The notes under the pieces: generated by a model
The model's input: the letters and a program-made list of their open reading frames with translations, nothing else
Told to the model about the DNA's origin: nothing
Databases searched by the model: none
In this document: one piece after another, positions 42,533 through 63,690 of the stretch
How the letters are laid out: the number at the start of each line of letters is the position of its first letter
How positions within the stretch are numbered: the first letter of the stretch is position 1
From: a virus
Taxonomy: Duplodnaviria; Caudoviricetes
DNA length: 64,000 bases
IMG/VR virus record: IMGVR_UViG_3300042431_000223
Coordinates: 11,006 to 75,005 of that record
Reading direction: 5' to 3' (one strand)
Translations under genes and position numbers: made by a program

Positions 42533-44542
42533 TTAGCGTCGGAATGGGCTACCGCTAGTCCTAAAAAGTTGTCTAGATTTCGTTGTTTTAAAGTAATCTT
42601 TCATACGAGCGTCTTCTGTAGAGGACACTAATACAGACTTACTGTTTAAAGACTTTGCCATAGCTAGGGTAAGGCCAAAGGAAATAACTCGGTCGACGTT
42701 TAACTTGGGAGTAAACTTAATTAATTCTTTTAAAAGTAAAGGATCTAAAATTCTAGTAACTCCAAGTCTTTCTTTAATTACGTTTCCTGCCTCATCTGTC
42801 TCTCGGTCTATTACCTCAGTAATGTATTCTATAATCAAAGAGTTTAAGTAATCCTTAATGTCAGTAGTCATGTGAATTCCATACTCACGATTTACCGCAC
42901 TATTAGGGTGAATGTCGTTTAAGAATGAAGGTGTACGCTCTAAGTAAAATGCAGACTCATTCTTTTCAATACAATGCTGAATAAATCCCATATCCATGTT
43001 TTCACAAAGAGTCTTTGCATTGTAGTACTTAAGAAGCATTTTAGTTGTTTCATACCAAGTTTCTATTTTCTTAGGACGACCTGTGTAGGCAGCCACTACA
43101 ATGTTAGACCAACCTTCCCCAGCAATATCATGTACTCTCTTATATATGTAAGTAGAGCCTAATGAGGTAGAGTACTTGGCTTGAGATTGTTTGTATGGGT
43201 CAGTTCCTGCTGTGTACAGTCCGTAGGGTGCACCTAATATAGGATACTCCCAAATCTGTATGCAACCCTCAAGATTGTCTGTTGGTTTAGAAGGAAAATT
43301 GTTTACAGGTTTTTTGTCCGTAAACTTGTGGGCAATAGTTCCATCAGACTTTTTAACTAACTCTACATAGTCTGGGTTAGCGTCCAAAGAAGTTATCTTT
43401 TGTAACTGTTCTTGTAACAGATCTACAGGAAAGATGTTTTGAGAAAGTTCTAAAAAGCATTCTTCATGATTTAATGGATAATACATTACCTCTTTAAGAT
43501 ATGCCTCTAAACCACTTGACTTCTTAATTTGCTCTCTAGACTTTAAAATTAGTTCCTTTCCTTTTTGCTCATCAGATACCCATATTGTTATATTGTCTAA
43601 TTCCGATGAATCTGGACTTTGCAAGTAAAGACCAAAAGGTTTAGGTTCTTTAGGAACCTTCAAAGACTTAGTACCTGGAATAAATAAACCGTAAGATTTA
43701 CCTGAATCTAATGACTCAACAGGAAGAAAGTTATACGCTTCAGGGTTATTGAAGAGTTCTTCAAGATCCCCTGCTTTAGTCATATCTCCCGAAGTCCCAA
43801 TGACAAAAGGAGAACAACGCCATCCATATGGGCTGTCAAAACAAGGAGTAGTTGCCGCCAAACAATTGAGAATCTTTCCTTTTCCTCCTTCCTCCAAGAG
43901 AAAAGAAGATAAAGTAAGACCAGCAGCTGCTTCCGTATTGTTGCCCTCATCGAAGTTTCGGATGTGAAATTTGGACCATTCATGTCTTACGTTTTGTTTG
44001 TCTTTGTATCCAAGAGTTACTTGTCGTTTCCAGTCGTCTTCAATACGTGGAAACTTAAAGTACTCGGGTAAATTCCGTAAACCTAAGTCTACGTATTCTG
44101 TTATGATTTTTAAGTCAGGTCCGTTAAGTGCAGAGATTAAATTGTCGCTACCTTTTTGAGTAACTGATTTATGGGTAATATACGATGAAGTCAATACCGA
44201 CTTGGATATACGTCGACTACCTACCATCACAACTCCTTTCTTACCGTCAGGATGATTTTCTGCTTTATGGATAGCTTCGTCTACTGCTAGGTACGTATCC
44301 CAAAGCTGAGGACGGTCAAGTTTTCGAACCTGCCGTTTACCTACTATAGTATCTACGTAGATAGACCAATAATTTAAGTGCCAATAAATAAAAGGAGAAA
44401 AGTAAAAACCATTTATAGTTATTCCTTCAGTTATCTTTTTGTCCTCTGCTTCCCAAAAAGAAACATACTCTGACGATTCTTTGTCAGGGACAGATTTCAT
44501 ATTAACAAAAAACTCTGGACTGTCCGTATACATATTAACCAA
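42533..44542 (-). CDS. terL: Terminase large subunit (669 aa)
   Basis: ATPase motifs GSRRISKS and FLLEEGGK, VIGTSG coupling motif, nuclease domain YTAGTDPY...NVDRVISF. Confidence 0.9.
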   Translation of the reverse strand: MVNMYTDSPEFFVNMKSVPDKESSEYVSFWEAEDKKITEGITINGFYFSPFIYWHLNYWSIYVDTIVGKRQVRKLDRPQLWDTYLAVDEAIHKAENHPDGKKGVVMVGSRRISKSVLTSSYITHKSVTQKGSDNLISALNGPDLKIITEYVDLGLRNLPEYFKFPRIEDDWKRQVTLGYKDKQNVRHEWSKFHIRNFDEGNNTEAAAGLTLSSFLLEEGGKGKILNCLAATTPCFDSPYGWRCSPFVIGTSGDMTKAGDLEELFNNPEAYNFLPVESLDSGKSYGLFIPGTKSLKVPKEPKPFGLYLQSPDSSELDNITIWVSDEQKGKELILKSREQIKKSSGLEAYLKEVMYYPLNHEECFLELSQNIFPVDLLQEQLQKITSLDANPDYVELVKKSDGTIAHKFTDKKPVNNFPSKPTDNLEGCIQIWEYPILGAPYGLYTAGTDPYKQSQAKYSTSLGSTYIYKRVHDIAGEGWSNIVVAAYTGRPKKIETWYETTKMLLKYYNAKTLCENMDMGFIQHCIEKNESAFYLERTPSFLNDIHPNSAVNREYGIHMTTDIKDYLNSLIIEYITEVIDRETDEAGNVIKERLGVTRILDPLLLKELIKFTPKLNVDRVISFGLTLAMAKSLNSKSVLVSSTEDARMKDYFKTTKSRQLFRTSGSPFRR

Positions 44543-46579: not shown

Positions 46580-47020
46580 CTACAGCTCCTTAATCAAATC
46601 AATTAAGCACTTCTCTACAGCTCTAGAATATGCTTTTTTATTGTGAGGAATTTCTTCAACCGTTAAGAACATTGCATTAACATATACAGTCTTTACGTTC
46701 CTAGAATAATGTGTAATGTTATTAGCTGTGATAGACATATTGACTACATAATCCCTTTTTAATAACTGTATTCCTATAATGTTTATAAGCCGTTGGGGTA
46801 ATGCAATTGTATTAATTGCTAGTTCTACTTTAATGCCTGTGTCACACAAAGCATATTTATTTGCAATTAATTGTTCTGCCGTAGCTACTACTCCAAAATC
46901 AACAGGTCTACCTGCTATAGTACGTAGGTGGGTGTGGTTGCGCACAGTGTCAATCTTATAACATTGAGCGTTTAGTGTAACTGCAAATGCAGTCAGTAGG
47001 ATTATAATTAGTTTTTTCAT
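46580..47020 (-). CDS. Secreted protein with Sec signal peptide (146 aa)
   Basis: MKKLIIILLTAFAVTLNA-QCY; alpha/beta mature domain. Confidence 0.7.
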   Translation of the reverse strand: MKKLIIILLTAFAVTLNAQCYKIDTVRNHTHLRTIAGRPVDFGVVATAEQLIANKYALCDTGIKVELAINTIALPQRLINIIGIQLLKRDYVVNMSITANNITHYSRNVKTVYVNAMFLTVEEIPHNKKAYSRAVEKCLIDLIKEL

Positions 47021-47022
47021 GG

Positions 47023-48006
47023 TTAATAAGTTACTTGTCCTGAGTATCCTGGAGCAATAAGATATAGATTTAGTGTGCCTCCTGTAGTAAGGGTTGAAGT
47101 CGTAAATGTACTTACTCCAGGATAAGTTGTGCGTACATTTACTTTAGATGCAACTATGGCATTATATTGAGCAAGTGTAAAGATTCTTACATCAGGCGCA
47201 CTTCTCCATCGATTAAATCTTCCTGACTTTCTAGCAGATAAATAATACTTGTCTGCTATGTTTATTCTTCCATCATCATTAAGATCAAATCTATGATAGG
47301 AAAGACCGTTAATTGTAGTCTTACCTAAGATAATATTAGAAATGCTTTGTATGTCTGTATTGGTGTAAGCCTGAACTCTAGTAGGAGCGTCTACCTCAAT
47401 GTAATACTCTTTGGAGGGGTCGTAGGCTTCTGAGATAGAGTAATACCCTGCAGAGTTAGTGTAGATTGTTTTGTAAAGTGTCCACGAAGAAGTAGTTACT
47501 ACATAATTAAATTCTAATACATAGGGAAGACTAACATTGTTAGGTAAGTCATTCCATCTACCATTAGATACAAACTGTACGTAGTCTTCGTTACCTGCGT
47601 TGTTTGGTTCTCCAGAGTTCCAGTTTTTATAAGAGTAAGTTTCTCCTGTTACCCATCTCCAAGTTCCCTCAGTTACTTCGTCTGTAAGTCCTATCCATCC
47701 TGAAGGCCAAATATTAAATATAAAACTTTGTTCTGCTGCACTAGTAATAGTTACTAAATAACCACCCATAGCTGCGCAGTTAGCCCTAGCAGTAGTCCAA
47801 GTAGCACTACCTGTAGAACGATAGTAAGAGTGTCCGTTATAATTTTGTTGGTTAGTAAATCCTGCAATAGTAGAGTTTGTTCTTCTGTAGAGTTTAACAG
47901 GTACGTTAGCTGCTCCAGAACCATTTGCATTATAGAGATACCCCGAATAATTAAATTGGGCTATTAGGGGAGTCGAGAATAAAAAAAGAACAATCAGCCA
48001 TCTCAT
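47023..48006 (-). CDS. Secreted C-type lectin domain protein with dockerin-like Ca-binding domain (327 aa)
   Basis: Signal peptide ...LIA-QF. CTL motifs NGHSYY, WTTARANCAAMGGYLVTITSAAEQ, WIGL, WNSGEPNN, EDYVQF, WND. Then DLNDDGRINIAD. Confidence 0.8.
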   Translation of the reverse strand: MRWLIVLFLFSTPLIAQFNYSGYLYNANGSGAANVPVKLYRRTNSTIAGFTNQQNYNGHSYYRSTGSATWTTARANCAAMGGYLVTITSAAEQSFIFNIWPSGWIGLTDEVTEGTWRWVTGETYSYKNWNSGEPNNAGNEDYVQFVSNGRWNDLPNNVSLPYVLEFNYVVTTSSWTLYKTIYTNSAGYYSISEAYDPSKEYYIEVDAPTRVQAYTNTDIQSISNIILGKTTINGLSYHRFDLNDDGRINIADKYYLSARKSGRFNRWRSAPDVRIFTLAQYNAIVASKVNVRTTYPGVSTFTTSTLTTGGTLNLYLIAPGYSGQVTY

Positions 48007-49388
48007 ATCTTTAATTTACCTCCCATTAAGATTTGATAGTTTACTATATCTTGATTTGCGATATATGTACCTCCCGCAGTCAAGCCAAATTTAAAAGTCT
48101 TAGTTATAGAGTAATTAATGTTTAGGAACGGAACTATAATAGGCTGAGACTCAAATAAACTTTCAGTGTAGTATTTTGTGTATGGTGCGTACACACTAGC
48201 TGCGATAATGGTAGCATCAATATGTTTAGTTAGTTGTCCTTTATACATAAAACCACCAATTAATAAAGTAGAGATTACTTCTTCTTTAAATAACTCTCCA
48301 TAAGAAGCGGCTGCTCCATACAGAGCTGTAAAGTTCTTTAACGAATTTACTCTTACAAAGAGCAGTGAGCCGTTGTAAGACCGAGGCATTAAGTTAATTC
48401 CAGCAGATAATACGTTAATGTGCTTATGCCCTTTTTTGTTAACGCCCATCCAAGATTGCATAGCATTAAAGTTTCCAATCTTTGCATTAACCATATAGTC
48501 AGCAGACAATCCAATTGAAGCTGTGCCATCTCCTTTAACACGAGTGAAAGACATAGTACCACGTGCATCTTGTGCTTGGTCTTTGACTGTCTGAACACCA
48601 ACAATGTCTCCTGTAACTAGGATAGCTGGTTTCTGTGTTTCTACTTTACCTTTTGCTGCTGACTTTGCAGATGCACTTCCACCTGCTTGTTGTGTTTCAG
48701 ATTTTTGTTCTTCTATTTTTTCAGGGGTTTTTTCTTCGGCTGGAGTTTCGCCTTCTCCTCCACTTCCACCACTTCCACTAGAACCTCCTTTAGATTTGCT
48801 TCCAACACTTACTTGTCCTTGCGACGTATTGGACCCTTGTCCAGATGATTCCCCACCTTGACCAGAGTTATCCCCAGAATTACCAGTAGAATTATTACCT
48901 CCATTACTACTAGACTTGTCGTTCGAACCTTCATTTTTACTGTCTGTTGTATTTGTTGTTCCTGAAGATGTTGTACTACCTATAGAAGTACTTGATCCCA
49001 TAGAAGTTGAAGATAAATCTAAACTAGATATTGAGTTTAAATTCATCACACTACTAACTAAAGATGTTACTGTATTAGTTGAAGTAGTGGTTGTAGTTGT
49101 TGAAAATACTCCTTCGCAGGGTTTAGAGTTCCGAAAATTCAAGTAGGTAGTATTTAACCAGTTGTCAAATGTACCGTCTTGAAGTTCTGCGTAACTAAAA
49201 CTTCTAACTTGCCTATAGTAACTAATCACTATAGGAGAGTTCATATCTGCGAATATAAACTTTAGCTCTTTTGTACACGGATCTGTGTACGAATATGTAA
49301 AGGACTGAGCGTTTAAACCCAGTCCTATACACATAAACAAGATTAATATGTTAACTCTTAAAGACACCGTTTCTAATAAGGTTTTCAA
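48003..49388 (-). CDS. Secreted protein: N-domain, Ser/Gly/Thr linker, putative outer-membrane beta-barrel (461 aa)
   Basis: Signal peptide ...GLGLNA-QSF, low-complexity linker, C-terminal ~200 aa of amphipathic strands ending YQILMGGKLKI. Confidence 0.55.
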   Translation of the reverse strand: MKTLLETVSLRVNILILFMCIGLGLNAQSFTYSYTDPCTKELKFIFADMNSPIVISYYRQVRSFSYAELQDGTFDNWLNTTYLNFRNSKPCEGVFSTTTTTTSTNTVTSLVSSVMNLNSISSLDLSSTSMGSSTSIGSTTSSGTTNTTDSKNEGSNDKSSSNGGNNSTGNSGDNSGQGGESSGQGSNTSQGQVSVGSKSKGGSSGSGGSGGEGETPAEEKTPEKIEEQKSETQQAGGSASAKSAAKGKVETQKPAILVTGDIVGVQTVKDQAQDARGTMSFTRVKGDGTASIGLSADYMVNAKIGNFNAMQSWMGVNKKGHKHINVLSAGINLMPRSYNGSLLFVRVNSLKNFTALYGAAASYGELFKEEVISTLLIGGFMYKGQLTKHIDATIIAASVYAPYTKYYTESLFESQPIIVPFLNINYSITKTFKFGLTAGGTYIANQDIVNYQILMGGKLKI

Positions 49389-50040
49389 TCACTTTGGTAG
49401 TTGCTGTTTCAAGCGACTTTCGTGTTGCCTTACCTACGGTACTTTGAGAAAACTTCATATCGTCTAGAGATTTTAAGAATGACTCTCCTACTTTTATAGA
49501 TTCGCCTTCACCAGAACCAATGTAAATTTGTCCTGTTTTAGCGTCTACAAATCGAACTTGCAAACGGATAAAAGTAGTTACCACTACTTTAGCTTTTCCA
49601 CCTTGTACGGTCTCGTCCTCGTCTACTGCAAAATCAGCAACGGTTACATAAACAAAGTAGTGAGCAGCTTTAATTTTTCCTTTGCCGTCAATAGGTTCTT
49701 CAAAGACTCCTTTTTTAGAAGCTTTGAACTGAGTTACCATCCTTTCCTTGATTTCACCCTTCTCTTCAGTAAATACAAAACGATTTGTCTCATCTAAATA
49801 ATCTAATACGGATTCTGCAAAACCTAAACCTACATTCTTCTCTTGAAGACTTGGGTACATAGCCAACACTTTAGTCATGTCCATGCTAATTACTTGTACG
49901 TTCTTCTTAATAGAATCAGTATATCCAGACACGCTAGAAATATCTTTTTTCTCAATAACCTCATCCTCGGTTGTGGTCTTCATAGAACCACAACCATAGA
50001 TAAGGATTATTAACAGTAGGCTACCAAGGATCTTCTTCAT
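49351..50040 (-). CDS. CsgG-like lipoprotein (~229 aa)
   Basis: Real start is probably the ATG at 50040 (MKKILGSLLLIILIYG-C lipobox). TNRFVFTEE, AAHYFVYVTVADFAVDE, IRLQVRFVDAKTGQIYIGSGEG resemble the CsgG/curli assembly family. Confidence 0.65.
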   Translation of the reverse strand: MKKILGSLLLIILIYGCGSMKTTTEDEVIEKKDISSVSGYTDSIKKNVQVISMDMTKVLAMYPSLQEKNVGLGFAESVLDYLDETNRFVFTEEKGEIKERMVTQFKASKKGVFEEPIDGKGKIKAAHYFVYVTVADFAVDEDETVQGGKAKVVVTTFIRLQVRFVDAKTGQIYIGSGEGESIKVGESFLKSLDDMKFSQSTVGKATRKSLETATTKVIENLIRNGVFKS

Positions 50041-50338
50041 CAGCTTGGGGTTTAGCGGCAGGAGTTGGAGCAGGAGCAGCTGCAGGTGCAGCTTTTTCTT
50101 TGATGATAATGGTTTTACCTCCACCATCAGTGTTTGCTTGTTGCTTCTGTTCGTTGTTCGTAGTGATGTTAATCACAGGTGCAGGGGCTGATACAGCAGT
50201 AGGAGTCTCAGCTTTTTCTTCGCCTCCACCTAAGTGAGTAGCAAACCAAGCACCACCTGCAGTAATTGCAGTAGTGATTGCTCCAATAATGGCTTTTTTA
50301 GCAGCGGACATACCGCCTTCTTCTTTTTCTTCTGACAT
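50021..50338 (-). CDS. Single-pass membrane protein with Pro/Ala-rich tail (~105 aa)
   Basis: ATG at 50338 (MSEEKEEGG) preferred. One hydrophobic helix AIIGAITTAITAGGAWFATHL. The 3' end overlaps the lipoprotein start by 20 nt. Confidence 0.65.
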   Translation of the reverse strand: MSEEKEEGGMSAAKKAIIGAITTAITAGGAWFATHLGGGEEKAETPTAVSAPAPVINITTNNEQKQQANTDGGGKTIIIKEKAAPAAAPAPTPAAKPQADEEDPW

Positions 50339-50342
50339 AATA

Positions 50343-50693
50343 TTATGGATTAGTTGTGTTTGACAAAGATACACCATCTTCCTCATCTACTTTTTGGATA
50401 AGCATTTTGTCTCTGTCTTCAGAATTGAACCAGTAGTCAACTACTTTGTTCAAGTTACCGACAAATGCTCCTAAGAGGATAAGCAACATTTCTTTCCAGT
50501 CTTCTCCAATAGATGCTCCCAAGAAGACAGCAGCATTAATACCGACAATGATTAGGGTAAACAAGCCTAACACAATGGCAGTGATTCTCCAACGGTTAGC
50601 TTGCATTTGTTGTAGCATGTAGTAGAAACGATTGTTATCTGGTACTGCTACGGGCTCTGCTTGGCCAAAACCAAGTTTGTCTTTTAGTTTCAT
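50343..50693 (-). CDS. Two-TM membrane protein (116 aa)
   Basis: Two hydrophobic helices (ITAIVLGLFTLIIVGINAAVFLG; MLLILLGAFVGNL). Confidence 0.7.
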   Translation of the reverse strand: MKLKDKLGFGQAEPVAVPDNNRFYYMLQQMQANRWRITAIVLGLFTLIIVGINAAVFLGASIGEDWKEMLLILLGAFVGNLNKVVDYWFNSEDRDKMLIQKVDEEDGVSLSNTTNP

Positions 50694-52579
50694 ATGATTA
50701 ATAGTTTAGAATCTAGGACTTGTTTTTCTGTTTTAAGAGTTAAGATATAAACTCCGTCAGGTAATCTTTCCAAATCTACACTGTATCTATAACTTCCTAC
50801 AGGCATGTGCTTGTCTAGAATATTTTGGACTAACTGACCTATTTCATTGTACAAAGACAAGTTTACGTCAGACTCTTCAGCTATCTTGAATTGTACTTGA
50901 ATGGCACCTTCAGAAGGATTTGGAAAAGCAATTAAATCACTTACTTGGTTCATGGATACAGTTCCTTTTCTACGAACCTCAATGATACCCATAGTAGGCG
51001 TAATTACCATGTCTCTTGCTTTGTCATCACCTACGTATTTTTCAGATGTCCAGATAGCTGCAGTAGCCCAAGAGTCTTGAGGTTTCTTAGCAATAAACTG
51101 AAGCGTAAATACAGCCTCTCCGTCATTCAATAGATTAGAATTGGTTAAGTCTGCGCCGCCCCAAGAAACAATTCCATTAGAACGGTTAGTGTAAGAAGTC
51201 CATTTCATAATCTTTTCAGTTACTTCTACGTTCTTAAATTCTAAGTAAGCAGTGTCGTACTTAAGATCTAACTGAAGAGCACCCAAAGATTTTCCATTTG
51301 TAAGAACTTTAACTGGTACGTTTACTAAGTTTCCACTCTCAACGGTAATTTTCGGCATGTTAATTTCTACTTTATCTAAAGTAGGATTGTCGTAAGATAC
51401 TGTTTGGTCAATAATGTATTTCTTAGCATTTGCTTGGTTGACAATCTTAATAGGAGTCAAACGAGCCATCTTAAATCCAGTAGAGTTTGCATCCCCTTTT
51501 ACTGCTACGTAATAGGTGATAGAGTCTCTACCATCAATAGTGTAATTAAAGTTATTTACTGTAGCATAAGTTGAAGTTAAGTTAGATGTAGCTCCGTTAA
51601 TTGAGTTGTACTCAGCAACAGTAAAGAACATTACATCTTTCTTAGAGTTAGGCCAAGAAGTAAATCTACCTGCTAATCTTCCGTATACTGAGTATACGTC
51701 GGCAATATTAATGTCTCCAGTAGTTCCGTTTACGTCCATTGTATAGTAGTCAAATCCTGTTGGAGTGTATTGCCCTAAAATAGATTGGTTAATCTTCTGT
51801 GCATCCGCAGTAGAGAATACGTTACCTGGAGTCATTGTGTCTCCTTTAACGACCATGCGGACATCCCAATATGTAGTATCTAAAAATTCTCTAAACACAA
51901 CATGTCCTACAGAGTTAGTTGCTTTAGCATCTACTTGAGTCCAAGACCCAGTTGGTGCTTTCTTTTCTAAAGACACCCACAAGTTCTTAGCATCAGAACC
52001 TGTTACGTTCTTAAATTTAGCAGCAAAGCGAAGAACCTTCTGATTGAAACGACCACCATAAGAATAAACTACTAACGTAGTATCGTTACCCCAGTTAGTA
52101 GCAGCTTTGTTTGCAAATGATTTCACACCTGCAACTTTCATAGTTTTGATAGAATCTAAGTTGTTCCATACAGCACTACTAGCATGCGTAAATGTCAAGT
52201 CAAAAGTTGCTCCGTTAGAATAGTTAAAAGTAGCACTAGAACCTGTGTACGCTAAAGTTACAGTTAAGAATCCTTGTGCGTTACTATCTACATACTGAAG
52301 ATATTGGTCTGAAGTAGAAATTTTCAAGGAAGGTACTACAGCAGTAAATGCAGTGTTATCGTAGAATATACGAAACTGCATACCTGTGATCTTTTCAGAA
52401 GTAGAAGTGTTATAGAAGTGAAGGGGTGCTACAGTCTGTCCTACAGTAGTTGTAGCCACTTGATAACCTGAGTCAATAACAACCCAATGTCCCGTACCTG
52501 GAGAAGTGTTTGCACTTTGTGCAAATAAGTCAGTAGCCAAGGTTATTACCCCGACTACAAATAGAATTAATTTTTTCAT
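50690..52579 (-). CDS. T9SS-sorted protein with cohesin-like and dockerin-like domains (629 aa)
   Basis: Signal peptide ...DLFA-QS. Cohesin-like VNVPVKV...LGALQLDLKYDTAYLEF, and a similar N-terminal ITGMQFRIFYD. Ca-loop DVNGTTGDINIAD. C-terminal AFPNPS...LYNEIGQLV...LPDGVYILTLKTE..SKLLII matches the T9SS type A sorting domain. Confidence 0.8.
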   Translation of the reverse strand: MKKLILFVVGVITLATDLFAQSANTSPGTGHWVVIDSGYQVATTTVGQTVAPLHFYNTSTSEKITGMQFRIFYDNTAFTAVVPSLKISTSDQYLQYVDSNAQGFLTVTLAYTGSSATFNYSNGATFDLTFTHASSAVWNNLDSIKTMKVAGVKSFANKAATNWGNDTTLVVYSYGGRFNQKVLRFAAKFKNVTGSDAKNLWVSLEKKAPTGSWTQVDAKATNSVGHVVFREFLDTTYWDVRMVVKGDTMTPGNVFSTADAQKINQSILGQYTPTGFDYYTMDVNGTTGDINIADVYSVYGRLAGRFTSWPNSKKDVMFFTVAEYNSINGATSNLTSTYATVNNFNYTIDGRDSITYYVAVKGDANSTGFKMARLTPIKIVNQANAKKYIIDQTVSYDNPTLDKVEINMPKITVESGNLVNVPVKVLTNGKSLGALQLDLKYDTAYLEFKNVEVTEKIMKWTSYTNRSNGIVSWGGADLTNSNLLNDGEAVFTLQFIAKKPQDSWATAAIWTSEKYVGDDKARDMVITPTMGIIEVRRKGTVSMNQVSDLIAFPNPSEGAIQVQFKIAEESDVNLSLYNEIGQLVQNILDKHMPVGSYRYSVDLERLPDGVYILTLKTEKQVLDSKLLII

Positions 52580-53034
52580 TGTCTATATTTTTGCAGTTTT
52601 TCATAAAGATTTGTCAGTAACCATGACTCAGGGGTTGGAATTTTTTGGATGAAGGATAACTCGTACATGTAGCATTTATATTCTTCTTCCGCTTCACTCA
52701 TGACAATGCCTTCTTTTGCGTAGAAAAGATGTTGACTCTCATGAACTAAAACGCAAGCTAAGTTGTTAATTGAATTTAACTTAATGTCTGCGTCTGCTAC
52801 AAGTATGGTATAGCGACCTTCAACTATACCTGTGGAAGAAAAAGAACTGTTCCAAAAATCAATCCGCTCACATACTTCAGTAAAAACTATGTACTTATCG
52901 ATATCATAGTTTTTAATTAGGCTGATTGCCGAATCAATTTTTAAGTCCCAGCCATCCCCTGCCTTTGACAATGTTTGACAAAAGCAGGAGTTGACTAAGA
53001 AAAGAAGACTACAAAGGGCCTTCCAATTTTTCAT
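52576..53034 (-). CDS. Secreted zincin-like metallopeptidase (152 aa)
   Basis: Signal peptide ...SCFC-QT; LVHESQH (HExxH) with downstream EEE. Confidence 0.55.
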   Translation of the reverse strand: MKNWKALCSLLFLVNSCFCQTLSKAGDGWDLKIDSAISLIKNYDIDKYIVFTEVCERIDFWNSSFSSTGIVEGRYTILVADADIKLNSINNLACVLVHESQHLFYAKEGIVMSEAEEEYKCYMYELSFIQKIPTPESWLLTNLYEKLQKYRQ

Positions 53035-53685
53035 TTATTTTTTTGCCTTAGCTGCTTTTGCTGCTTTCTTGGCTTCTCCAGTTGCTTTATCTGCGGCAAT
53101 AAAGTCACCAGACTCAATCAAAGTGTAAGTGAAAGAGTTACCGTGGATACCACGAGCCTGTTTACAGATTTCCATAAACTGGTTAAAATCTTTCTCACGT
53201 TTGAATACTTGACATCCTTCAGACCAGTTTTCTACAAAGGTAGAATCTGCACCTGCTTTGTGGATGTTGATACCGTACACACCTTCAGTGATTTTAGACT
53301 CATCATAAGTCATGTCTTTGTTAGCGTCACGGTAAACTTTTACGTTTGCTTTTTGTTTCAACGCTTCGTACTTTCCTTGGTGTAACCCAATAGCGTGGCT
53401 TCCACGATATTGACCAGCAACTAGACGCGCTACTCCGCCAGGGTTATGGAATTGCATAACACCTTTTGTTCCAGGATCTGTAGTAGCTTGCCATTGATGA
53501 AATACCCATTTACCTGCTACTTTGTAAGCAACAGTCATAGTGTCATCAAATAGGTTGGTAACATCATTTCCAGTAGAAGAATTACGTACACCTATGATAT
53601 TTACATCATAGTCTTTTGCGCCATCAAAGTAAACATAGCCCTTGGCTTTTACTGCGGCTTCGATTTGTTCTCTAGTATAGTTCAT
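53035..53685 (-). CDS. Putative endolysin, L,D-transpeptidase (YkuD)-like (216 aa)
   Basis: GINIHKAG...NWSEGCQVF His/Cys motif; adjacent to a holin-like gene. Confidence 0.65.
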   Translation of the reverse strand: MNYTREQIEAAVKAKGYVYFDGAKDYDVNIIGVRNSSTGNDVTNLFDDTMTVAYKVAGKWVFHQWQATTDPGTKGVMQFHNPGGVARLVAGQYRGSHAIGLHQGKYEALKQKANVKVYRDANKDMTYDESKITEGVYGINIHKAGADSTFVENWSEGCQVFKREKDFNQFMEICKQARGIHGNSFTYTLIESGDFIAADKATGEAKKAAKAAKAKK

Positions 53686-53687
53686 AA

Positions 53688-53936
53688 TTATTCTTCAGTT
53701 TTAGGTTGAGGCTTTTTCATAATCTTCTCAACAGAAGTTAAACCTAAACAACCAAATGCAAGTAATGCTACAGCATCTACTAACGGAGTAGATGGAGCAA
53801 AGTGAGCCTCTGTAAAAGAGTTGGCGTACAACGTTGCGCAAAGAGTAAGAGTACACATTAATCCGCACAAACGTTTCATGGAGACATTGCCTTTTTCATC
53901 TTTGAAAAGACCTCCAATAAAATTTACAAATTTCAT
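53688..53936 (-). CDS. Putative holin (82 aa, two TM)
   Basis: KDEKGNVSMKRL, two hydrophobic helices, basic C-terminus. Confidence 0.6.
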   Translation of the reverse strand: MKFVNFIGGLFKDEKGNVSMKRLCGLMCTLTLCATLYANSFTEAHFAPSTPLVDAVALLAFGCLGLTSVEKIMKKPQPKTEE

Positions 53937-53991: not shown

Positions 53992-55734
53992 TTATTCTAA
54001 TCGCAAAAATGCTTCAAGTTGCTCTCCAGTGGTTTGAGGAGTGGCTACATTCTTAAGTCGCATACCTATGCTATTCTCAACTGTGATGTTGGCAACTAAG
54101 TAATCCCAAACAGAAGCAGCGGTAAGTACAGCATTTCCAAAAGTATTATCTACTGCTACTCCATAGGTTACTTGGTTAGGATGAGGCATACGCAAAGTTC
54201 CTGTCTGACTTCCTATTGAGTAAACTGTTCCAAATCTTACATTAGCTGGGGTAGGATTGTCTGCTATAGTTGCAGGAGAAACTAATTGAGTTGCAGGAGC
54301 AATTGCACCAGGTGATACTGCGCCATTAGTTGTTTCGTCTCTAAATTCAAAATAAGAGTTAGTAGTAGGGATTAGGTGCATTCTTGTACAAGTTAAAGGA
54401 GCACCTCCATAAGGTCCTGAAACAAACGGACCTGAAAATAAATTAATTGCTCCAGAAGAAGTGCTATGTACGCCGCTAGTTTCAAAAGGAGCGGTGTGTT
54501 GTGCGTATATTGTTCCAATAACACTTAAAAAATGAGCTTGTCCAGAAACAATACCTGCACCTGATCCTATTGCTCCTGAGCTTTGTCCTCCGTAAACATT
54601 ACCAGTTACATAAATAGTTGCACCTGCTCCTACAGAAATACCAGCATCATTACCAAATCCTCCGTAGATATTTCCAGTAACGTTTACTGTACACACAGTA
54701 TTAACTACTAAATGTTGTGCATTTTGTGAACCGCCTGGTCCAAGTTTATTTGGGTTAATATCTCCCACTATATTAAGAACAGCACCAGCACTTCCAGTAG
54801 TCATTAATATTCCGTGCGATCCTGACCAATTACCTGTTACACCTCCAAGAAAATTAGTTGTACCTGTTGAAAAAATAACCAAACAATGCCTAGCACCACC
54901 AAACGATACAATTCTAGTACTACCTACTATATTAAGTGTACAATTTCCTGTTTTTGCAATAACTCTACTACTGTCGACTCCAAAATTAGTCAGATTTGAA
55001 TTAACATTAACTACAGCAGGTGAGGCAGCTGAAACAGTTAAAGGAGCTGTGGCTGATCCTCCCGTAATACCTATTAGACTAGTACATGTAATAGTTACTG
55101 AAGAGTTAGCTATAAATCCACCACCTGCTACGGAAGATCCATTAAAATCTCCACTTTCAAATAGTCTTATTGTACCCATACTAGCAAACTCACCTCCGTT
55201 TATAGCAGTTATATAAAATCTATACTTAATATAAGATGTTGTATGAGTTAGTAACGGACTAGCATAGTTTTGAGTAGCATTACTAGTGACCGTATGTAGT
55301 GTTATCCAAGTTGAACCATTCCACCCCTGAAATTCAAAATTTCTTGGAGTACTTGCTAGAGTCCACCATCCAATAAAACTATAACTTGTAATTAATTTAG
55401 TAGTTGGAAATTCATAAGCTATCCATTGAGGCATGGCAGTTTGATTAGGAGACAACCAACCATTTCCCCCAAATCCAACCCAAGCTGCTCGGGCAGAATC
55501 ATAATCCCCACTAGAGGTAACTATACCACTAGGAGTCGTAAAACCTGTCATTATTGGGACAGCACTTACGGCTACCTGTGCGGCATTTGTGAGCGTATCT
55601 ATATTAACATTTTGATCTATAGTTACTGTAAAATTATTAGATGCAATAGTATCACCAACTTTAGGTAAAGAGCCTGCATTCCATGTTGCTGGATTAGACC
55701 AGTTCCCATTTGCGACTGCTACTTTTAATCCCAT
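53992..55734 (-). CDS. Fibre/receptor-binding protein with discoidin (F5/8 type C)-like domain (580 aa)
   Basis: QWIAYEFPTTKLITSY...PRNFEFQGWNGSTW, followed by Gly-rich beta-helix-like repeats. Paralog of the next gene. Confidence 0.7.
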   Translation of the reverse strand: MGLKVAVANGNWSNPATWNAGSLPKVGDTIASNNFTVTIDQNVNIDTLTNAAQVAVSAVPIMTGFTTPSGIVTSSGDYDSARAAWVGFGGNGWLSPNQTAMPQWIAYEFPTTKLITSYSFIGWWTLASTPRNFEFQGWNGSTWITLHTVTSNATQNYASPLLTHTTSYIKYRFYITAINGGEFASMGTIRLFESGDFNGSSVAGGGFIANSSVTITCTSLIGITGGSATAPLTVSAASPAVVNVNSNLTNFGVDSSRVIAKTGNCTLNIVGSTRIVSFGGARHCLVIFSTGTTNFLGGVTGNWSGSHGILMTTGSAGAVLNIVGDINPNKLGPGGSQNAQHLVVNTVCTVNVTGNIYGGFGNDAGISVGAGATIYVTGNVYGGQSSGAIGSGAGIVSGQAHFLSVIGTIYAQHTAPFETSGVHSTSSGAINLFSGPFVSGPYGGAPLTCTRMHLIPTTNSYFEFRDETTNGAVSPGAIAPATQLVSPATIADNPTPANVRFGTVYSIGSQTGTLRMPHPNQVTYGVAVDNTFGNAVLTAASVWDYLVANITVENSIGMRLKNVATPQTTGEQLEAFLRLE

Positions 55735-57548
55735 TACTCGTTATTATTTAATGTGGTTTGAATTTGTGTTCCAGTAGTTTCAACCGTAGCAGCGTTTTTA
55801 ACTCTTCTTCCTATACTGTTTAGAGTATTGATGGAAGTTAGTGGGACAGCCCATATAGCGTTGGGATCTAGTACTGCTGTGCCGACTGTGTTATCTACAG
55901 GTACGTTGTTTGCTACGTTACTCGCTGCAGGTACTACCATAGTTCCTGTGAGCGAACCTGCCGCATAAACTACTCCTTGTCTTACATTAGAAGCTGCTGG
56001 TGCGTCTATTGCAGTTCCTGGAGATACTAACCTTGTAATAGGAGCAGGTCCAGCAGGAGGTAATGCCCCGTTAGTAGAGTTGTCTCTAAACTCGTAGTAA
56101 GAACCAAGGGTTCTTTGGTAGTGCATACGAGTGACGCTGAAAGGTTGTATTGCTTCTGGTGAACTTATAAAAGGTCCAGTAAGTATATTTATATTACTTG
56201 CTCCTGTTGAAACAAAACCCGCATTTCTAAAACCTGCTATGATAGGTCCTATGTGTTTATAATACGATGGTGTTCCACTAACTATTACCGCATTGGAAGC
56301 ACCTGTCATAGCCGTAGAACCTGGATCAGAAGAAACAGTACCAACGATGTTAATTGTACAGTTGTTGTTTACGGCCAGAGCCCACCAGTTTGTATTTGTT
56401 CCAGTTGTATTCGCAATATACAGATTACCCGTAATATTGATTATTGCACTAGTTGCACTAATAGACACCCCACTATTTGCTGTGTTGAAATTGCAGTACG
56501 CATTTCCAGTCATGTTTAAGGTTGTACCCGTACTCAAAACAACCGTTTCTTTTTGAGTACCTCGTGTTTCAACATCTCCAACTAAATTCAACACGCTTCC
56601 AAATGCGGTAATTCTAATTGCAGTTGCATTACCCACACTTCCAGCAAAGCCGTTGACCTTTCCATTTACATTTAATATTGCCGCAGCTGTTACATTTATA
56701 GCGTTAGTAGAGGAATTAGACGTTGATCCATTTATTGTTCCGTTTATTGTTATGTTTCCTGCTCCTGAGATTAAAAATCCATTTATATTGTTTGCAGTTA
56801 TTCCTCCAAAAATCCCATTAATTACAACACTTCCCGTACCTGAATAAGTAAGAAGAGTTGTTGAACCAATTGATATACCATTTCCAGTATTAGTACAAGT
56901 AACAGTTAATCCGTCATTAAGTATAAATGTTCCTCCTGCTACTGCACTAGCTAAAGCAAGAGAGTTAGCAAGTGTTAGCTCATTTATCAACATATAGCCT
57001 TGGCTATAAGGAGCTAACATATACATTCTATACTTATTATATGCCGTAGTATTTGTAAAATTATAAGTTGTAGCTGTTCCTACTTTAGGAGCATTTACAA
57101 TAGATTGCAAGACTATCCAAGAAGACCCATTCCATGCTTGAAATTCCCAAGTAACGGGAGCATCTGTATTATTAGCAAGAAGAACATATCTATTTACAAC
57201 AGTAGGAGAAGGGAACTCGTACTCAAGCCATTGTGGAGGACCAGAAGTACTAGATGCCCAACTAGTACTATTGTTTTTATCAAAAGCTCTCCAAGCAGGA
57301 TACAAAGCAGGATTTAATACAGTACTTGCACTAACTACACCAGATGGAGTAGTGTCAGAAGTCATAGCAGGAACAAGACCTGGATCTGTTTGAGCAGTAT
57401 TAGTTAATGAGTCAACATTAATATTCTGATCAATAGTTATTGTAAATCCGTTAGATGCAACAATATCTCCAGGAGAAGGCAAAACACCCCCGTTCCAAAT
57501 TGCAGGATTACTCCAGTTACCAGATGCTATTGCTCCTCTTAATGGCAT
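55734..57548 (-). CDS. Fibre/receptor-binding protein with discoidin-like domain (604 aa), paralog of 53992..55734
   Basis: QWLEYEFPSPTVVNRY...PVTWEFQAWNGSSW; shared N- and C-terminal blocks. Confidence 0.7.
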   Translation of the reverse strand: MPLRGAIASGNWSNPAIWNGGVLPSPGDIVASNGFTITIDQNINVDSLTNTAQTDPGLVPAMTSDTTPSGVVSASTVLNPALYPAWRAFDKNNSTSWASSTSGPPQWLEYEFPSPTVVNRYVLLANNTDAPVTWEFQAWNGSSWIVLQSIVNAPKVGTATTYNFTNTTAYNKYRMYMLAPYSQGYMLINELTLANSLALASAVAGGTFILNDGLTVTCTNTGNGISIGSTTLLTYSGTGSVVINGIFGGITANNINGFLISGAGNITINGTINGSTSNSSTNAINVTAAAILNVNGKVNGFAGSVGNATAIRITAFGSVLNLVGDVETRGTQKETVVLSTGTTLNMTGNAYCNFNTANSGVSISATSAIINITGNLYIANTTGTNTNWWALAVNNNCTINIVGTVSSDPGSTAMTGASNAVIVSGTPSYYKHIGPIIAGFRNAGFVSTGASNINILTGPFISSPEAIQPFSVTRMHYQRTLGSYYEFRDNSTNGALPPAGPAPITRLVSPGTAIDAPAASNVRQGVVYAAGSLTGTMVVPAASNVANNVPVDNTVGTAVLDPNAIWAVPLTSINTLNSIGRRVKNAATVETTGTQIQTTLNNNE

Positions 57549-63405: not shown

Positions 63406-63690
63406 ATGAAACTACTTACTCTCATCATAGGAATGTTCCTTGCCACTTCGGTACAGGGACAGAGCAAGCAACTACCAAAGATGTCTTCTGACGACTCTGC
63501 CTTCGTTTTAACTGTAGTTAAAGATATGAAACCCATATCGTACACAGCTACAAAAACTCATCATGGCGTCGTATTAGTAATGGTCTACAAAGACTATACA
63601 CTAATCGAAACACTCGTTGACGGATTCGTTGAAGACTTGGTAGAACTTACTCCAAAAACAGTTTATGTATATCCAAGGGAATCGGAATGA
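63406..63690 (+). CDS. Early secreted protein (94 aa)
   Basis: Signal peptide MKLLTLIIGMFLATSVQG-QSK. Confidence 0.7.
   Translation: MKLLTLIIGMFLATSVQGQSKQLPKMSSDDSAFVLTVVKDMKPISYTATKTHHGVVLVMVYKDYTLIETLVDGFVEDLVELTPKTVYVYPRESE

Follow-up and report, generated by a model that had tools for sequence, protein, structure and literature searches.

Phage clusters of the CsgG/CsgF ('curli', type VIII) kind are known from pelagimyophages and from the Methylophilales phage Melnitz (PMC7029224, PMC9004378), and the roles proposed for them are cell aggregation by 'sibling capture' (PMC7029224) and, for phage Melnitz, the timing of lysis (PMC9004378). T9SS type A sorting domains have been found on cargo encoded in flexible regions of 'Cryophage' genomes, for which secretion through the host system is presumed (Bellas et al. 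2020, PMC7468147). The eight-gene cassette analysed here (g1 to g8, positions 46580-53034 of the window, that is, of the whole 64-kb stretch of DNA under study) matches no described system. Like the phage CsgG/CsgF clusters, it is a small conserved cluster of lytic aquatic phages that includes a CsgG-family gene and no curli subunits. The hosts of those clusters, however, are SAR11 or OM43 rather than Bacteroidota, and they include CsgF and a CsgG that is modelled as a pore, whereas the cassette has no CsgF and its CsgG-like protein, g5, is without both membrane hairpins; g5 is accompanied instead by a separate barrel and two proteins of the inner membrane, by a cohesin protein with a T9SS signal, and by a lectin and an HExxH protein. 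With the 'Cryophage' cargo it shares a T9SS type A sorting domain, on g2, but that cargo consists of single variable enzymes or PA14 proteins, while g2 is a cohesin scaffold in a fixed multi-gene envelope module beside lysis genes.

The window belongs to a 75,005-bp contig without a terminal repeat, so that the genome is probably incomplete. Judging from the sequence, including terminase (phrog_6681, 1e-96), portal (phrog_6547, 1e-97) and major head protein (phrog_11589), its source is an uncultured crAss-like phage infecting Bacteroidota. A first-pass annotation had recognised eight contiguous genes encoding five proteins with signal peptides, one with a lipobox and two inner-membrane proteins, and this holds for every product: g1, g2, g6, g7 and g8 carry signal peptides, g5 a lipobox that is present in 57/57 distinct orthologues of the window's own clade, and g3 and g4 two and one membrane helices, respectively. 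Among all of the contig's 57 ORFs, membrane segments and N-termini of hydrophobic character cluster in this block. Predicted cleavage exposes Gln in all five signal-peptide proteins, as in the Bacteroidetes Q-rule (PMC5837995), and would thus fit a Bacteroidota host. The extent of the block, by contrast, has to be revised, since it does not start at g1: a holin-like gene (53688-53936) and an endolysin gene (53035-53685) precede g1 in a ten-gene block, co-oriented on the minus strand with gaps of at most 4 nt. The holin-like gene comes first, 2 nt upstream of the endolysin gene, whose stop codon abuts the g1 start with zero gap. Further on, g1/g2, g2/g3 and g6/g7 overlap by 4 nt, g4/g5 by 20 nt and, provided that the uncertain TTG start of g6 is correct, g5/g6 by 38 nt; g3/g4 and g7/g8 are separated by 4 and 2 nt. 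Tail-fibre genes flank the block on one side and terminase on the other, and in the crAss-like lineage the cassette sits within the late structural and lysis block. The holin-like protein (82 aa, two membrane helices, charged C-terminus) has no family match in profile searches and occurs beside two unrelated endolysin types; the endolysin of the window (216 aa; phrog_3000, 1.3e-35; phrog_33083 'endolysin', 2.1e-13) has no signal peptide.

The T9SS signal and the lectin proposed by the first-pass annotation were both recovered in profile searches. Besides its signal peptide, g2 (50690-52579; 629 aa) has two stretches that resemble cohesin, a calcium-loop region that resembles dockerin and, at the C-terminus, a T9SS type A sorting domain, and its matches to Cohesin (8e-13), Por_Secre_tail (1.2e-10) and TIGR04183 (6.3e-9) all exceed the curated cut-offs. 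g7 (47023-48006; 327 aa) is a secreted C-type lectin with EPN and WND motifs (Lectin_C, 3.3e-18) and no sorting domain. The C-terminal half of g7 is a paralogue of g2 residues 210-344 (BLASTP, 5e-18), and this common module carries a calcium loop of the DxNxDGxIxxxD type. The assignment to dockerins, which the first-pass annotation had also raised, stands less firmly: a dockerin-like region does exist in g2, but the Dockerin_1 match of g7 (0.028) lies below the family cut-off and there is one loop instead of the usual duplicated pair. In the cultured Flavobacterium phage immuto, two genes take the place of g2, and both encode a signal peptide; one secreted product holds the cohesin and the sorting domain, the other the dockerin-like half. 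The ensemble recalls cohesin-dockerin assemblies, such as cellulosomes and non-cellulosomal cohesin/dockerin proteins, unlike which it includes no carbohydrate-active enzymes and relies on T9SS anchoring rather than on a sortase or an S-layer homology domain.

Profile and fold agree in placing g5 (49351-50040; 229 aa, conserved start MKKILG, lipobox IYGC) in the CsgG family. Pfam CsgG is matched by 17/45 g5 relatives (best, 1.9e-25), the g5 profile matches E. coli CsgG (7.5e-5), and the AF2 model (pLDDT 81) retrieves CsgG with Foldseek (6.9e-7) and VIA (Z 12.4), the best viral structural match being a phage protein named CsgG. The first-pass annotation had further inferred a pore or barrel of the phage's own, but a pore cannot rest on g5 because this protein lacks the two transmembrane hairpins that make CsgG a pore: in the profile alignment to E. 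coli CsgG, the equivalent of the first hairpin is charged and falls short by about 6 residues (DEDETVQGGKAK), and only about 16 residues occupy the site of the second, which has about 35 in CsgG. Relatives of g5 are also found fused to caspase or kinase domains, which points to a general periplasmic module. The channel, if there is any, would be g6 (48003-49388; 461 aa), in which a signal peptide, a small two-Cys N-domain and a Ser/Thr/Gly-rich linker of about 150 aa precede a C-terminal barrel. A beta-barrel had been proposed at first reading, and the AF2 model agrees with moderate confidence, predicting 12 strands at residues 255-459 (pLDDT 70-78 there, 54 overall); VIA matches it to CymA (Z 16.5), OmpG (16.1) and PelB (14.7), and Foldseek to TamA, intimin, KdgM, FapF and autotransporter barrels.

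Since the g5 fold also matches PelC (Z 9.5) and LptE (Z 8.6), the PelB match of g6 comes from the PelBC structure and the two genes are adjacent and overlapping, g5 and g6 may form a complex of the PelC-PelB or LptE-LptD type. The cassette has, however, no sequence relationship to Pel or Lpt and no polysaccharide or LPS genes nearby, and the 12 strands predicted in g6 compare with 16 in PelB and 26 in LptD.

The remaining products are small. g4 (50021-50338; 105 aa, conserved start MSEEK) is a single-pass membrane protein whose periplasmic stretch is rich in Pro and Ala; PVINIT is a conserved motif of it, Trp is its last residue, and it has no coiled coil. g3 (50343-50693; 116 aa, two membrane helices) ends in a highly conserved acidic tail, DYWF..DKML.QK.DEEDGVSLS, and has homologues in at least 2078 clusters, none of them named. 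g1 (52576-53034; 152 aa) is secreted and has no sequence match in Pfam, NCBIfam or PDB, the only atlas leads being DUF6647 and eCIS_core (0.93 each). In its alignment HESxHL is invariant, and EE..CY.YE is a second motif; of the 'peptidase' announced by the first-pass annotation, the HExxH motif is therefore real, and that motif makes g1 a putative small zinc peptidase. g8 (46580-47020; 146 aa), also secreted, is the least conserved member; hhalign against the g5 family aligned its last helix only (probability 3.8%), and no known fold could be assigned to it.

Hundreds of phage contigs from aquatic sources, belonging to unrelated lineages, contain the cassette as a unit. More than 280 viral contigs carry it, including complete genomes with terminal repeats and one cultured phage. 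Loci fetched from crAss-like and Immutovirus-like phages are collinear in 80/80 cases, the homologues immuto_13-19 of phage immuto among them; the eight genes do travel together, and the segment is not the host-derived assembly chimera that the first-pass annotation had allowed for. A search of 185,579 species genomes gave only 11 matches, all in metagenome bins and with a phage-like context where cassette or lysis neighbours are present, and true bacterial homologues (34-36% identity) have no cassette around them. Conservation is high: median identities are 92.5% for g3, 89.5% for g5 and 93.5% for the holin-like protein, versus 80.7% for terminase and 78.0% for portal, and in a marine version g3 is 45% identical while g5 is only 34% identical. 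The lectin position is variable in other loci, and it is the one most often swapped. The cassette is nonetheless accessory, as it is present in 27/37 close terminase relatives and absent from 10/37. Moreover, in a second large clade, clade B (g5 about 45% identical to that of the window), and in phage immuto, the signal peptide of g5 is of the ordinary kind and the protein is not lipid-anchored, and clade B g2 is devoid of the sorting domain; neither the use of the T9SS nor a lipid anchor is thus common to all versions of the module.

Linkage to lysis genes was overlooked at first reading. An endolysin or holin homologue lies within 3 kb of the cassette in all 42 loci that could be evaluated (those with at least 3 kb on both flanks), across five arrangements, two unrelated endolysin types and two holin types; in clade B, a lysis gene lies within 4 kb of g5 in 45/59 loci. 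In one locus (L090) the holin-like gene is inside the cassette, with the endolysin after g5 and a small barrel-like ORF. The seat of the module is the slot behind the endolysin. In relatives without the cassette, this slot holds small spanin-like membrane proteins in at least 7/10 cases, which, like i-spanins, combine a single membrane helix with a periplasmic part that is helical or a coiled coil. The commonest of them (alt93) occurs in 0/27 cassette carriers versus 5/10 non-carriers (Fisher p = 5.8e-4, a value that ignores kinship), and four genomes that carry the cassette, with a completeness of 84-100%, have none of these spanin-like slot proteins.

Several readings of the cassette can be set against these data. 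That it encodes parts of the virion, or that the segment derives from a host or from misassembly, is scarcely credible: a location between tail-fibre genes and terminase might suggest it, but no product is without a Sec signal, lipobox or membrane helix, and the distribution described above is that of a phage module. A self-sufficient curli-type secretion pore formed by g5 is very doubtful, family membership notwithstanding, given the missing hairpins, the fusions of g5 relatives and the lack of any CsgA/B/E/F-like neighbour in profile searches. An uptake device, in which g2 and g7 would bind surface glycans and feed the g6 channel, with g5 as lipoprotein partner and g4 as a TonB-like protein, is improbable. 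The g6 barrel does resemble sugar-specific channels (CymA and OmpG, also KdgM and NanC), g4 combines a membrane helix with a Pro/Ala-rich spacer, and in Immutovirus-like phages the cassette adjoins replication and nucleotide-metabolism genes; but the similarity of g6 is generic to outer-membrane barrels, profile searches found neither a TonB C-terminal domain in g4 nor an ExbB/ExbD-like partner, and the late block of the crAss-like lineage would be a poor time for uptake.

Two readings are of closer standing. In lysis-independent surface display, the main reading of the first-pass annotation, a T9SS-anchored cohesin scaffold bearing a glycan-binding lectin would decorate the infected cell, and those parts that have no sorting domain would use g5-g6 as their own gate or anchor in the outer membrane; the purpose might be receptor masking on cell and debris, superinfection exclusion or clumping of neighbouring cells. 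The domains of g2 and g7 and their common module speak for it, as do the separate proteins of immuto, which fit non-covalent docking, the swapping of the lectin, expected of strain-specific glycan recognition, the moron-like mobility of an accessory cassette, and the precedents of T9SS cargo (PMC7468147) and 'sibling capture' (PMC7029224). It leaves unexplained the lysis linkage through five rearrangements and two endolysin swaps, the holin-like gene inside the L090 cassette and the alternation with small spanin-like proteins; clade B g2 lacks the sorting domain, the dockerin match is below cut-off and no PADLOC model matches the cassette. Surface display is nearly as likely as a role coupled to lysis, which the first-pass annotation had placed last in its list, as an 'unconventional outer-membrane lysis step', and which is now at least as well supported. 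Besides the contiguity with holin and endolysin, the linkage and alternation just named, and the conservation of g3, g5 and the holin-like protein above that of terminase and portal, there is the lysis-timing proposal for phage Melnitz (PMC9004378) and a likeness to Rz/Rz1-type spanins, inner-membrane and lipoprotein partners whose genes often overlap (PMC6139136), as do g4, with its periplasmic extension, and g5 downstream of holin and endolysin. Against it, neither protein is like known spanins, since g4 is devoid of a coiled coil and g5 is globular, 213 aa long and not always lipidated, and six further genes complete the unit; a device for outer-membrane disruption would need neither a T9SS-tagged cohesin protein nor a lectin. 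The immuto endolysin lies 28 kb from the cassette, and no lysis gene was recognised near the marine versions. A second lysis-like locus of the lineage, with a holin family 4_1-like gene and a 129-aa protein (signal peptide, coiled coil, C-terminal membrane helix), is retained whether the cassette is there or not. In other phages, too, accessory surface genes such as lambda bor adjoin lysis genes, so that linkage alone is no proof of a lysis role.

The reading that I favour, with a probability of roughly 0.4, is that of a mobile, lysis-coupled envelope module, exchanged among phages of aquatic Bacteroidota, whose targets at burst are the outer membrane and the cell surface. The cassette, the holin-like gene and the endolysin gene would be expressed as one late block, and Sec would export all eight products from the cytoplasm, as their signals suggest. 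g3 and g4 would remain in the inner membrane, g4 spanning the periplasm via its Pro/Ala-rich stretch, while g5, a ring-type CsgG fold hung from the outer membrane, and the g6 barrel would form an outer-membrane complex whose layout is that of PelC-PelB or LptE-LptD and not that of the CsgG pore. The host T9SS would take g2 to the cell surface, where it would hold the lectin g7 through the common module. As holin and endolysin fire, the complex would act on the outer membrane and the surface layer, and may thus supply or assist the outer-membrane disruption that is the task of spanins in other phages.

The 75,005-bp viral contig, of which the window covers 64 kb, carries no terminal repeat, so that the genome is probably incomplete. 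The matches of its terminase (phrog_6681, 1e-96), portal (phrog_6547, 1e-97) and major head protein (phrog_11589) identify a distant crAss-like phage. Among cultured phages, the one whose terminase best matches that of the window (42533-44542) is Lbo-JY46, a phage of the cyanobacterium Leptolyngbya (39% identity); the matches in gut crAss-like phages and in Cellulophaga phages come behind it, at about 30%. The eight genes of the envelope cassette, g1 to g8 (46580-53034, about 9% of the contig), proved to be real minus-strand ORFs, with junctions between a 38-nt overlap and a 4-nt gap. By ortholog alignment, the start of g4 was set at MSEEK (50338) and that of g5 at MKKILG (50040), which yields the lipobox IYGC. 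The exported or membrane nature that the first-pass annotation had assigned to all eight products holds: signal peptides are found in g1, g2, g6, g7 and g8, a lipobox in g5, two membrane helices in g3 and one in g4. Each of the five signal peptides is followed by Gln, the Bacteroidetes 'Q-rule' of signal peptidase I substrates (PMC5837995), and Q-rule signal peptides are known from Porphyromonas phages (PMC10367356). The host of the cultured relative, phage vB_FspM_immuto (immuto), is Flavobacterium sp. LMO8. Among the contig's 57 ORFs, export and membrane signals cluster in the cassette block. A 94-aa ORF of the opposite-strand early region (63406-63690, plus strand), whose signal peptide ends in ..VQGQ, is a predicted exported protein outside the cassette.

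The gene block extends beyond these eight genes. An endolysin gene (53035-53685, minus strand; phrog_3000 1.3e-35, phrog_33083 'endolysin' 2.1e-13) abuts g1, and a holin-like gene encoding 82 aa with two helices (53688-53936, minus strand) lies 2 nt before it. The products of g1, g3, g4, g8 and the holin-like gene gave nothing above noise in Pfam, PHROGs, NCBIfam and PADLOC. A sigma-70 and terminator scan was at chance overall (36 promoter-like sites versus 38 expected). Two copies of the promoter-like pair TTGACT-16 nt-TATATT on the minus strand bracket the ten-gene block, one shortly before the holin-like gene (53989-53962) and one shortly after g8 (46490-46463); Bacteroidota promoters deviate from this consensus. 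Directly upstream of the lysis block, positions 53992-57548 hold two adjacent paralogous tail-fibre-like genes of 580 and 604 aa (phrog_17517), for which relatives with a terminase identity of 73-93% show an identity of only 31-50%; judged from these identities, this is a fast-evolving host-recognition region.

The association with lysis genes is recurrent. An endolysin or holin homologue was found at most 3 kb from the cassette, and usually within a few hundred bases, in 42 of the 42 evaluable loci, namely those flanked on each side by 3 kb or more of sequence. Five orders occur: a holin-like gene and a 216-aa lysin precede the cassette, or the cassette is followed by a GH19 lysin, a 126-aa gene and a family 4_1 holin, by a family 4_1 holin and a GH19 lysin, by a holin-like gene and a GH19 lysin, or by the 216-aa lysin. 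In a second freshwater clade of loci, a lysis gene lies within 4 kb of g5 in 45 of 59 cases, and in one locus (L090) a holin-like gene stands between g3 and g5, with a lysin after g5 and a small barrel-like ORF. Exceptions are immuto, whose lysin is 28 kb from the cassette, and the marine version of the cassette, near which no lysis gene was recognised.

With g5 alone as a query, 124 IMG/VR contigs were retrieved at 81-100% identity, 80 of which were fetched. That the cassette genes travel together was borne out, since their order is constant across the 80 loci: g2, g5, g6 and g7 are present in all of them, g4 in 78, g8 in 72, g3 in 67 and g1 in 57, many absences corresponding to loci whose contig ends inside the cassette or less than 1 kb from it. 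A crAss-like terminase is present in only 27 of the 80. Complete genomes of 166-176 kb, one with terminal repeats, contain the cassette and lack that terminase; with immuto they share 63% identity in DnaB and a similar gene neighbourhood. Immuto itself carries a diverged cassette (immuto_13-19), with identities to the window of 44% for g5, 51% for g7 and 25% for g6. Marine TARA contigs carry a version with g5 at 34%, and the second freshwater clade, in which g5 shares about 45% identity with the window protein, adds 156 contigs. A scan of 185,579 species genomes with a narrower g5 alignment, the wide one being too diverse, gave 11 matching loci, all in metagenome bins. A bacterial origin of the whole cassette was considered and rejected: the bacterial g5 homologues (L094, L095) have ordinary bacterial surroundings, from which the other genes are missing. 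Given this spread over phage backbones, and true bacterial homologues devoid of the other genes, the cassette is phage-specific, ancient and exchanged between unrelated backbones. Among 50,697 phage records, a nucleotide search returned the immuto lectin as the only match, and g5 and g6 protein searches of phage records returned four immuto records only. Searches for the g5, g6 and g3 families each gave from about 830 to more than 2,000 clusters of proteins (90% identity), which places the module among the commoner gene sets of freshwater viromes that lack an explanation.

Conservation across the cassette is uneven, and parts of it exceed the terminase and the portal. Over loci that also have terminase and portal, median identities are 93.5% for the holin-like protein, 92.5% for g3, 89.5% for g5 and 86.8% for g2, compared with 80.7% for the terminase and 78.0% for the portal; g4, g6 and g7 are at about 77%, g1 at 67% and g8 at 51%. 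The cytoplasmic tail of g3, DYWF..D.DKML.QK.DEEDGVSLS, is nearly constant between freshwater and marine versions (window 50343-50693; L083:2038-2352; L090:6902-7474), while g5 fell to 34% identity. This tail, which is without known family, is the most constrained piece of the module.

CsgG is built with two amphipathic transmembrane beta-hairpins per subunit, which together form a 36-strand pore. The proposal that g5 is CsgG-like stood as regards family and fold, and failed as regards the pore. Taken alone, g5 matches no Pfam family and, by phmmer, no PDB sequence, CsgG being reached by profile only. An exhaustive search of 1.84 billion representatives yielded 155 relatives; among 45 that were aligned, 17 match Pfam CsgG (PF03783, best 1.9e-25) and seven match LpoB, and the family profile matches E. 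coli CsgG (3x2r) at 7.5e-5. The AF2 monomer model (pLDDT 81) has CsgG 4uv2 as its best Foldseek match (6.9e-7) and, by VIA, aligns with 6lqh_A at Z 12.4 (rmsd 2.9 A over 146 residues), CT253 (Z 10.7) and PelC (Z 9.5) coming after CsgG; Cj1090c, the FlgT ring, LptE and PqiC are, like these two, further structural matches below CsgG. In the profile alignment with E. coli CsgG, however, the equivalent of the first hairpin is about 15 residues long versus about 21, and charged (DEDETVQGGKAKVVV), and the segment from strand 5 to the last helix has about 16 residues versus about 35, leaving the second hairpin without room. As judged from this alignment and the monomer model, both membrane hairpins are missing, so that g5 appears to be a CsgG-family periplasmic core and not a CsgG pore; that it forms such a pore by itself, as its family might suggest, is unlikely. 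Neither the curli partners CsgE and CsgF nor the subunits CsgA and CsgB were found among the other nine block proteins with Pfam, PHROGs and NCBIfam. In bacteria, relatives of the g5 domain are fused to or stand beside caspase (Peptidase_C14) or Ser/Thr kinase domains (P0151, P0177, P0184, P0248; L095:8827-10899), which marks the core as a general module. A g5-g6 fusion as a Rosetta stone was looked for and rejected, as the long g5 relatives carry caspase or kinase domains instead; P0251 alone among them has a weak OMP_b-brl match, which it combines with CsgG and FlgT_C.

The beta-barrel claim for g6 is upheld by a model of moderate confidence. Although no Pfam family is matched and the overall AF2 confidence is 54, it reaches 70-78 over twelve consecutive strands (residues 255-459), and all structural matches are outer-membrane barrels, with Z up to 16.5: CymA (Z 16.5), OmpG (16.1) and PelB (14.7) by VIA; TamA, intimin, KdgM, FapF and autotransporter barrels by Foldseek. 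The model fits the 12-strand class of outer-membrane barrels, in which a signal peptide precedes a closed antiparallel barrel whose last strand is hydrophobic or aromatic. Its signal peptide is followed by a small two-Cys domain, a long Ser/Thr/Gly linker and the C-terminal barrel, a layout that recalls an autotransporter, by analogy only. The C-terminal residue is F in the immuto and marine orthologues; the window protein ends in KLKI. As for the inner-membrane protein g4, its helix is followed by a Pro/Ala-rich periplasmic part that contains a short PVINIT motif and ends in Trp, and in which no coiled coil is readable. In g1, an alignment of 25 sequences shows an invariant HESxHL motif and, downstream, EE..CY.YE, with H98, E99, H102 and E117/E118 invariant, which makes g1 a candidate zincin metallopeptidase, a class with HExxH and a third ligand; no family match was obtained in Pfam, NCBIfam or PDB sequences, including with the g1 profile against PDB. 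A second CsgG-like fold was considered for g8 and set aside as unproven, hhalign aligning the last helix only, with a probability of 3.8%; the g8 profile has no match among PDB sequences.

The T9SS, cohesin and lectin domains of g2 and g7 were recovered above the curated cut-offs. Residues 552-628 of g2 match the T9SS sorting domain (PF18962, 42 bits, cut-off 27, 1.2e-10; TIGR04183, 35.7 bits, cut-off 23, 6.3e-9), which is also present in immuto_15 and the marine homologues; with its N-terminal Sec signal and this C-terminal domain, g2 is predicted to be T9SS type A cargo. It also matches cohesin (PF00963, 49.2 bits, cut-off 24.1, 8e-13) in two stretches, the best being residues 405-521. Residues 68-163 of g7 match the C-type lectin family (PF00059, 66.8 bits, cut-off 22.6, 3.3e-18), and its translation shows EPN and WND motifs; the sugar specificity is presumed from established CTLD knowledge. 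Dockerin_1 (PF00404) scores 15.1 bits in g7, below the 22.9 cut-off (E 0.028); a single dockerin-like calcium loop is present in g7 (DLNDDGRINIAD) and in g2 (DVNGTTGDINIAD), with no second repeat seen in either. The C-terminal half of g7, calcium loop included, and residues 210-344 of g2 are paralogous (E 5e-18). In immuto, g2 is divided between two genes, of which one encodes a dockerin-like protein and the other the part with cohesin and sorting domain; both products have a signal peptide. The g2 of the second clade lacks the T9SS sorting domain and is followed by a separate lipoprotein of 117-123 aa (L158:8035-8388; L090:6201-6572), whose end (..YDLTLTDVSGVTIKKPLIIN) looks like the last sorting-domain strands.

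Within the phage backbone of the window the cassette is an accessory element: of the 37 close terminase relatives whose upstream sequence is long enough, 27 have it and 10 lack it. Four of these ten (L194, L207, L216, L222) have homologues of the holin-like gene and the endolysin followed, in the cassette slot, by two small genes, one for a 93-aa protein built like an i-spanin, with a single membrane helix and a coiled coil, and one for a signal-anchored protein of 146 aa that also has a coiled coil. In a fifth (L213), relatives of both genes are present and no lysin is recognisable. In L210 and L217, a more distant endolysin homologue precedes two genes, whose products are a membrane protein of 101-104 aa, helical in its periplasmic part, and a signal-anchored protein of 121 aa. 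The 93-aa gene occurs in none of 27 relatives with the cassette versus five of 10 without it (Fisher p = 5.8e-4, a value that ignores shared ancestry). Nor do the small slot genes occur in four genomes that carry the cassette and have a completeness of 84-100%, or in the 160 cassette loci obtained with g5 as the query. The i-component of a two-component spanin has an N-terminal helix and a periplasmic coiled coil, of which g4 has the helix alone. The 20-nt overlap of g4 and g5, 2.6 kb behind the endolysin, is reminiscent of an o-component; that component, however, is a small outer-membrane lipoprotein, whereas mature g5 has about 213 residues, is globular, and is without a lipobox in the second clade and in immuto. 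About 10 kb before the window start lies a second lysis-like locus (L229; G000:C1:379-1352), with genes for a 139-aa protein 62% identical to the Phage_holin_4_1 match of another locus (L042) and for a 129-aa protein that combines a signal peptide and a coiled coil with a membrane helix at its C-terminus. This locus belongs to the phage backbone and is kept in relatives with and without the cassette.

The cassette may be viewed as a mobile module of the lysis region that would act on the envelope late in infection, with g3, g4, g5 and g6 as a putative trans-envelope core and g2 and g7 as a surface set, g1 and g8 being assigned to neither. The linkage to lysis genes, the interleaving with them, the alternation with small genes in the same slot and the overlap of g4 and g5 point to a role at lysis, in disrupting the outer membrane or assisting its disruption, to which I give a probability of roughly 40%. 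Display at the cell surface independently of lysis, for masking, exclusion or adhesion, is an alternative only slightly less probable, which would account for the lectin and the possibility of swapping it, the cohesin scaffold, the routing by T9SS and the fact that the cassette is accessory; morons such as lambda bor also adjoin lysis genes. The role at lysis has a more elaborate version, in which a novel outer-membrane disruption machine of Bacteroidota phages, a trans-envelope complex of g3 and g4 in the inner membrane with a g5 ring and a g6 barrel in the outer one, would replace spanins and be coupled to a T9SS-displayed lectin/cohesin coat handling the surface layer or debris at burst. 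I consider this version rather unlikely.

CsgG/CsgF clusters have been described in pelagimyophages and phage Melnitz, for which 'sibling capture' and the timing of lysis were put forward as hypotheses (PMC7029224, PMC9004378), and 'Cryophage' provides a phage-borne T9SS cargo (PMC7468147). The eight-gene unit is not described in these papers or in PMC10367356, and full-text literature searches found no account of a phage CsgG/T9SS/cohesin cassette. New here are a g5 without the CsgG hairpins, a lysis linkage counted across arrangements, the accessory status with slot alternation, and the split g2 of immuto. How Bacteroidota phages breach the outer membrane is poorly known, and so is their effect on the T9SS-built cell surface. 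A module whose g5 is 81-100% identical between unrelated phage lineages, and which is tied to lysis genes in lake phages, merits testing, and Flavobacterium sp. LMO8 with immuto is a cultured pair with the cassette, which makes the question directly testable. If the role at lysis is true, a spanin substitute made of a CsgG-fold ring and a barrel would be new biology; if surface display is, so would be a phage-made lectin coat put up via the host T9SS.
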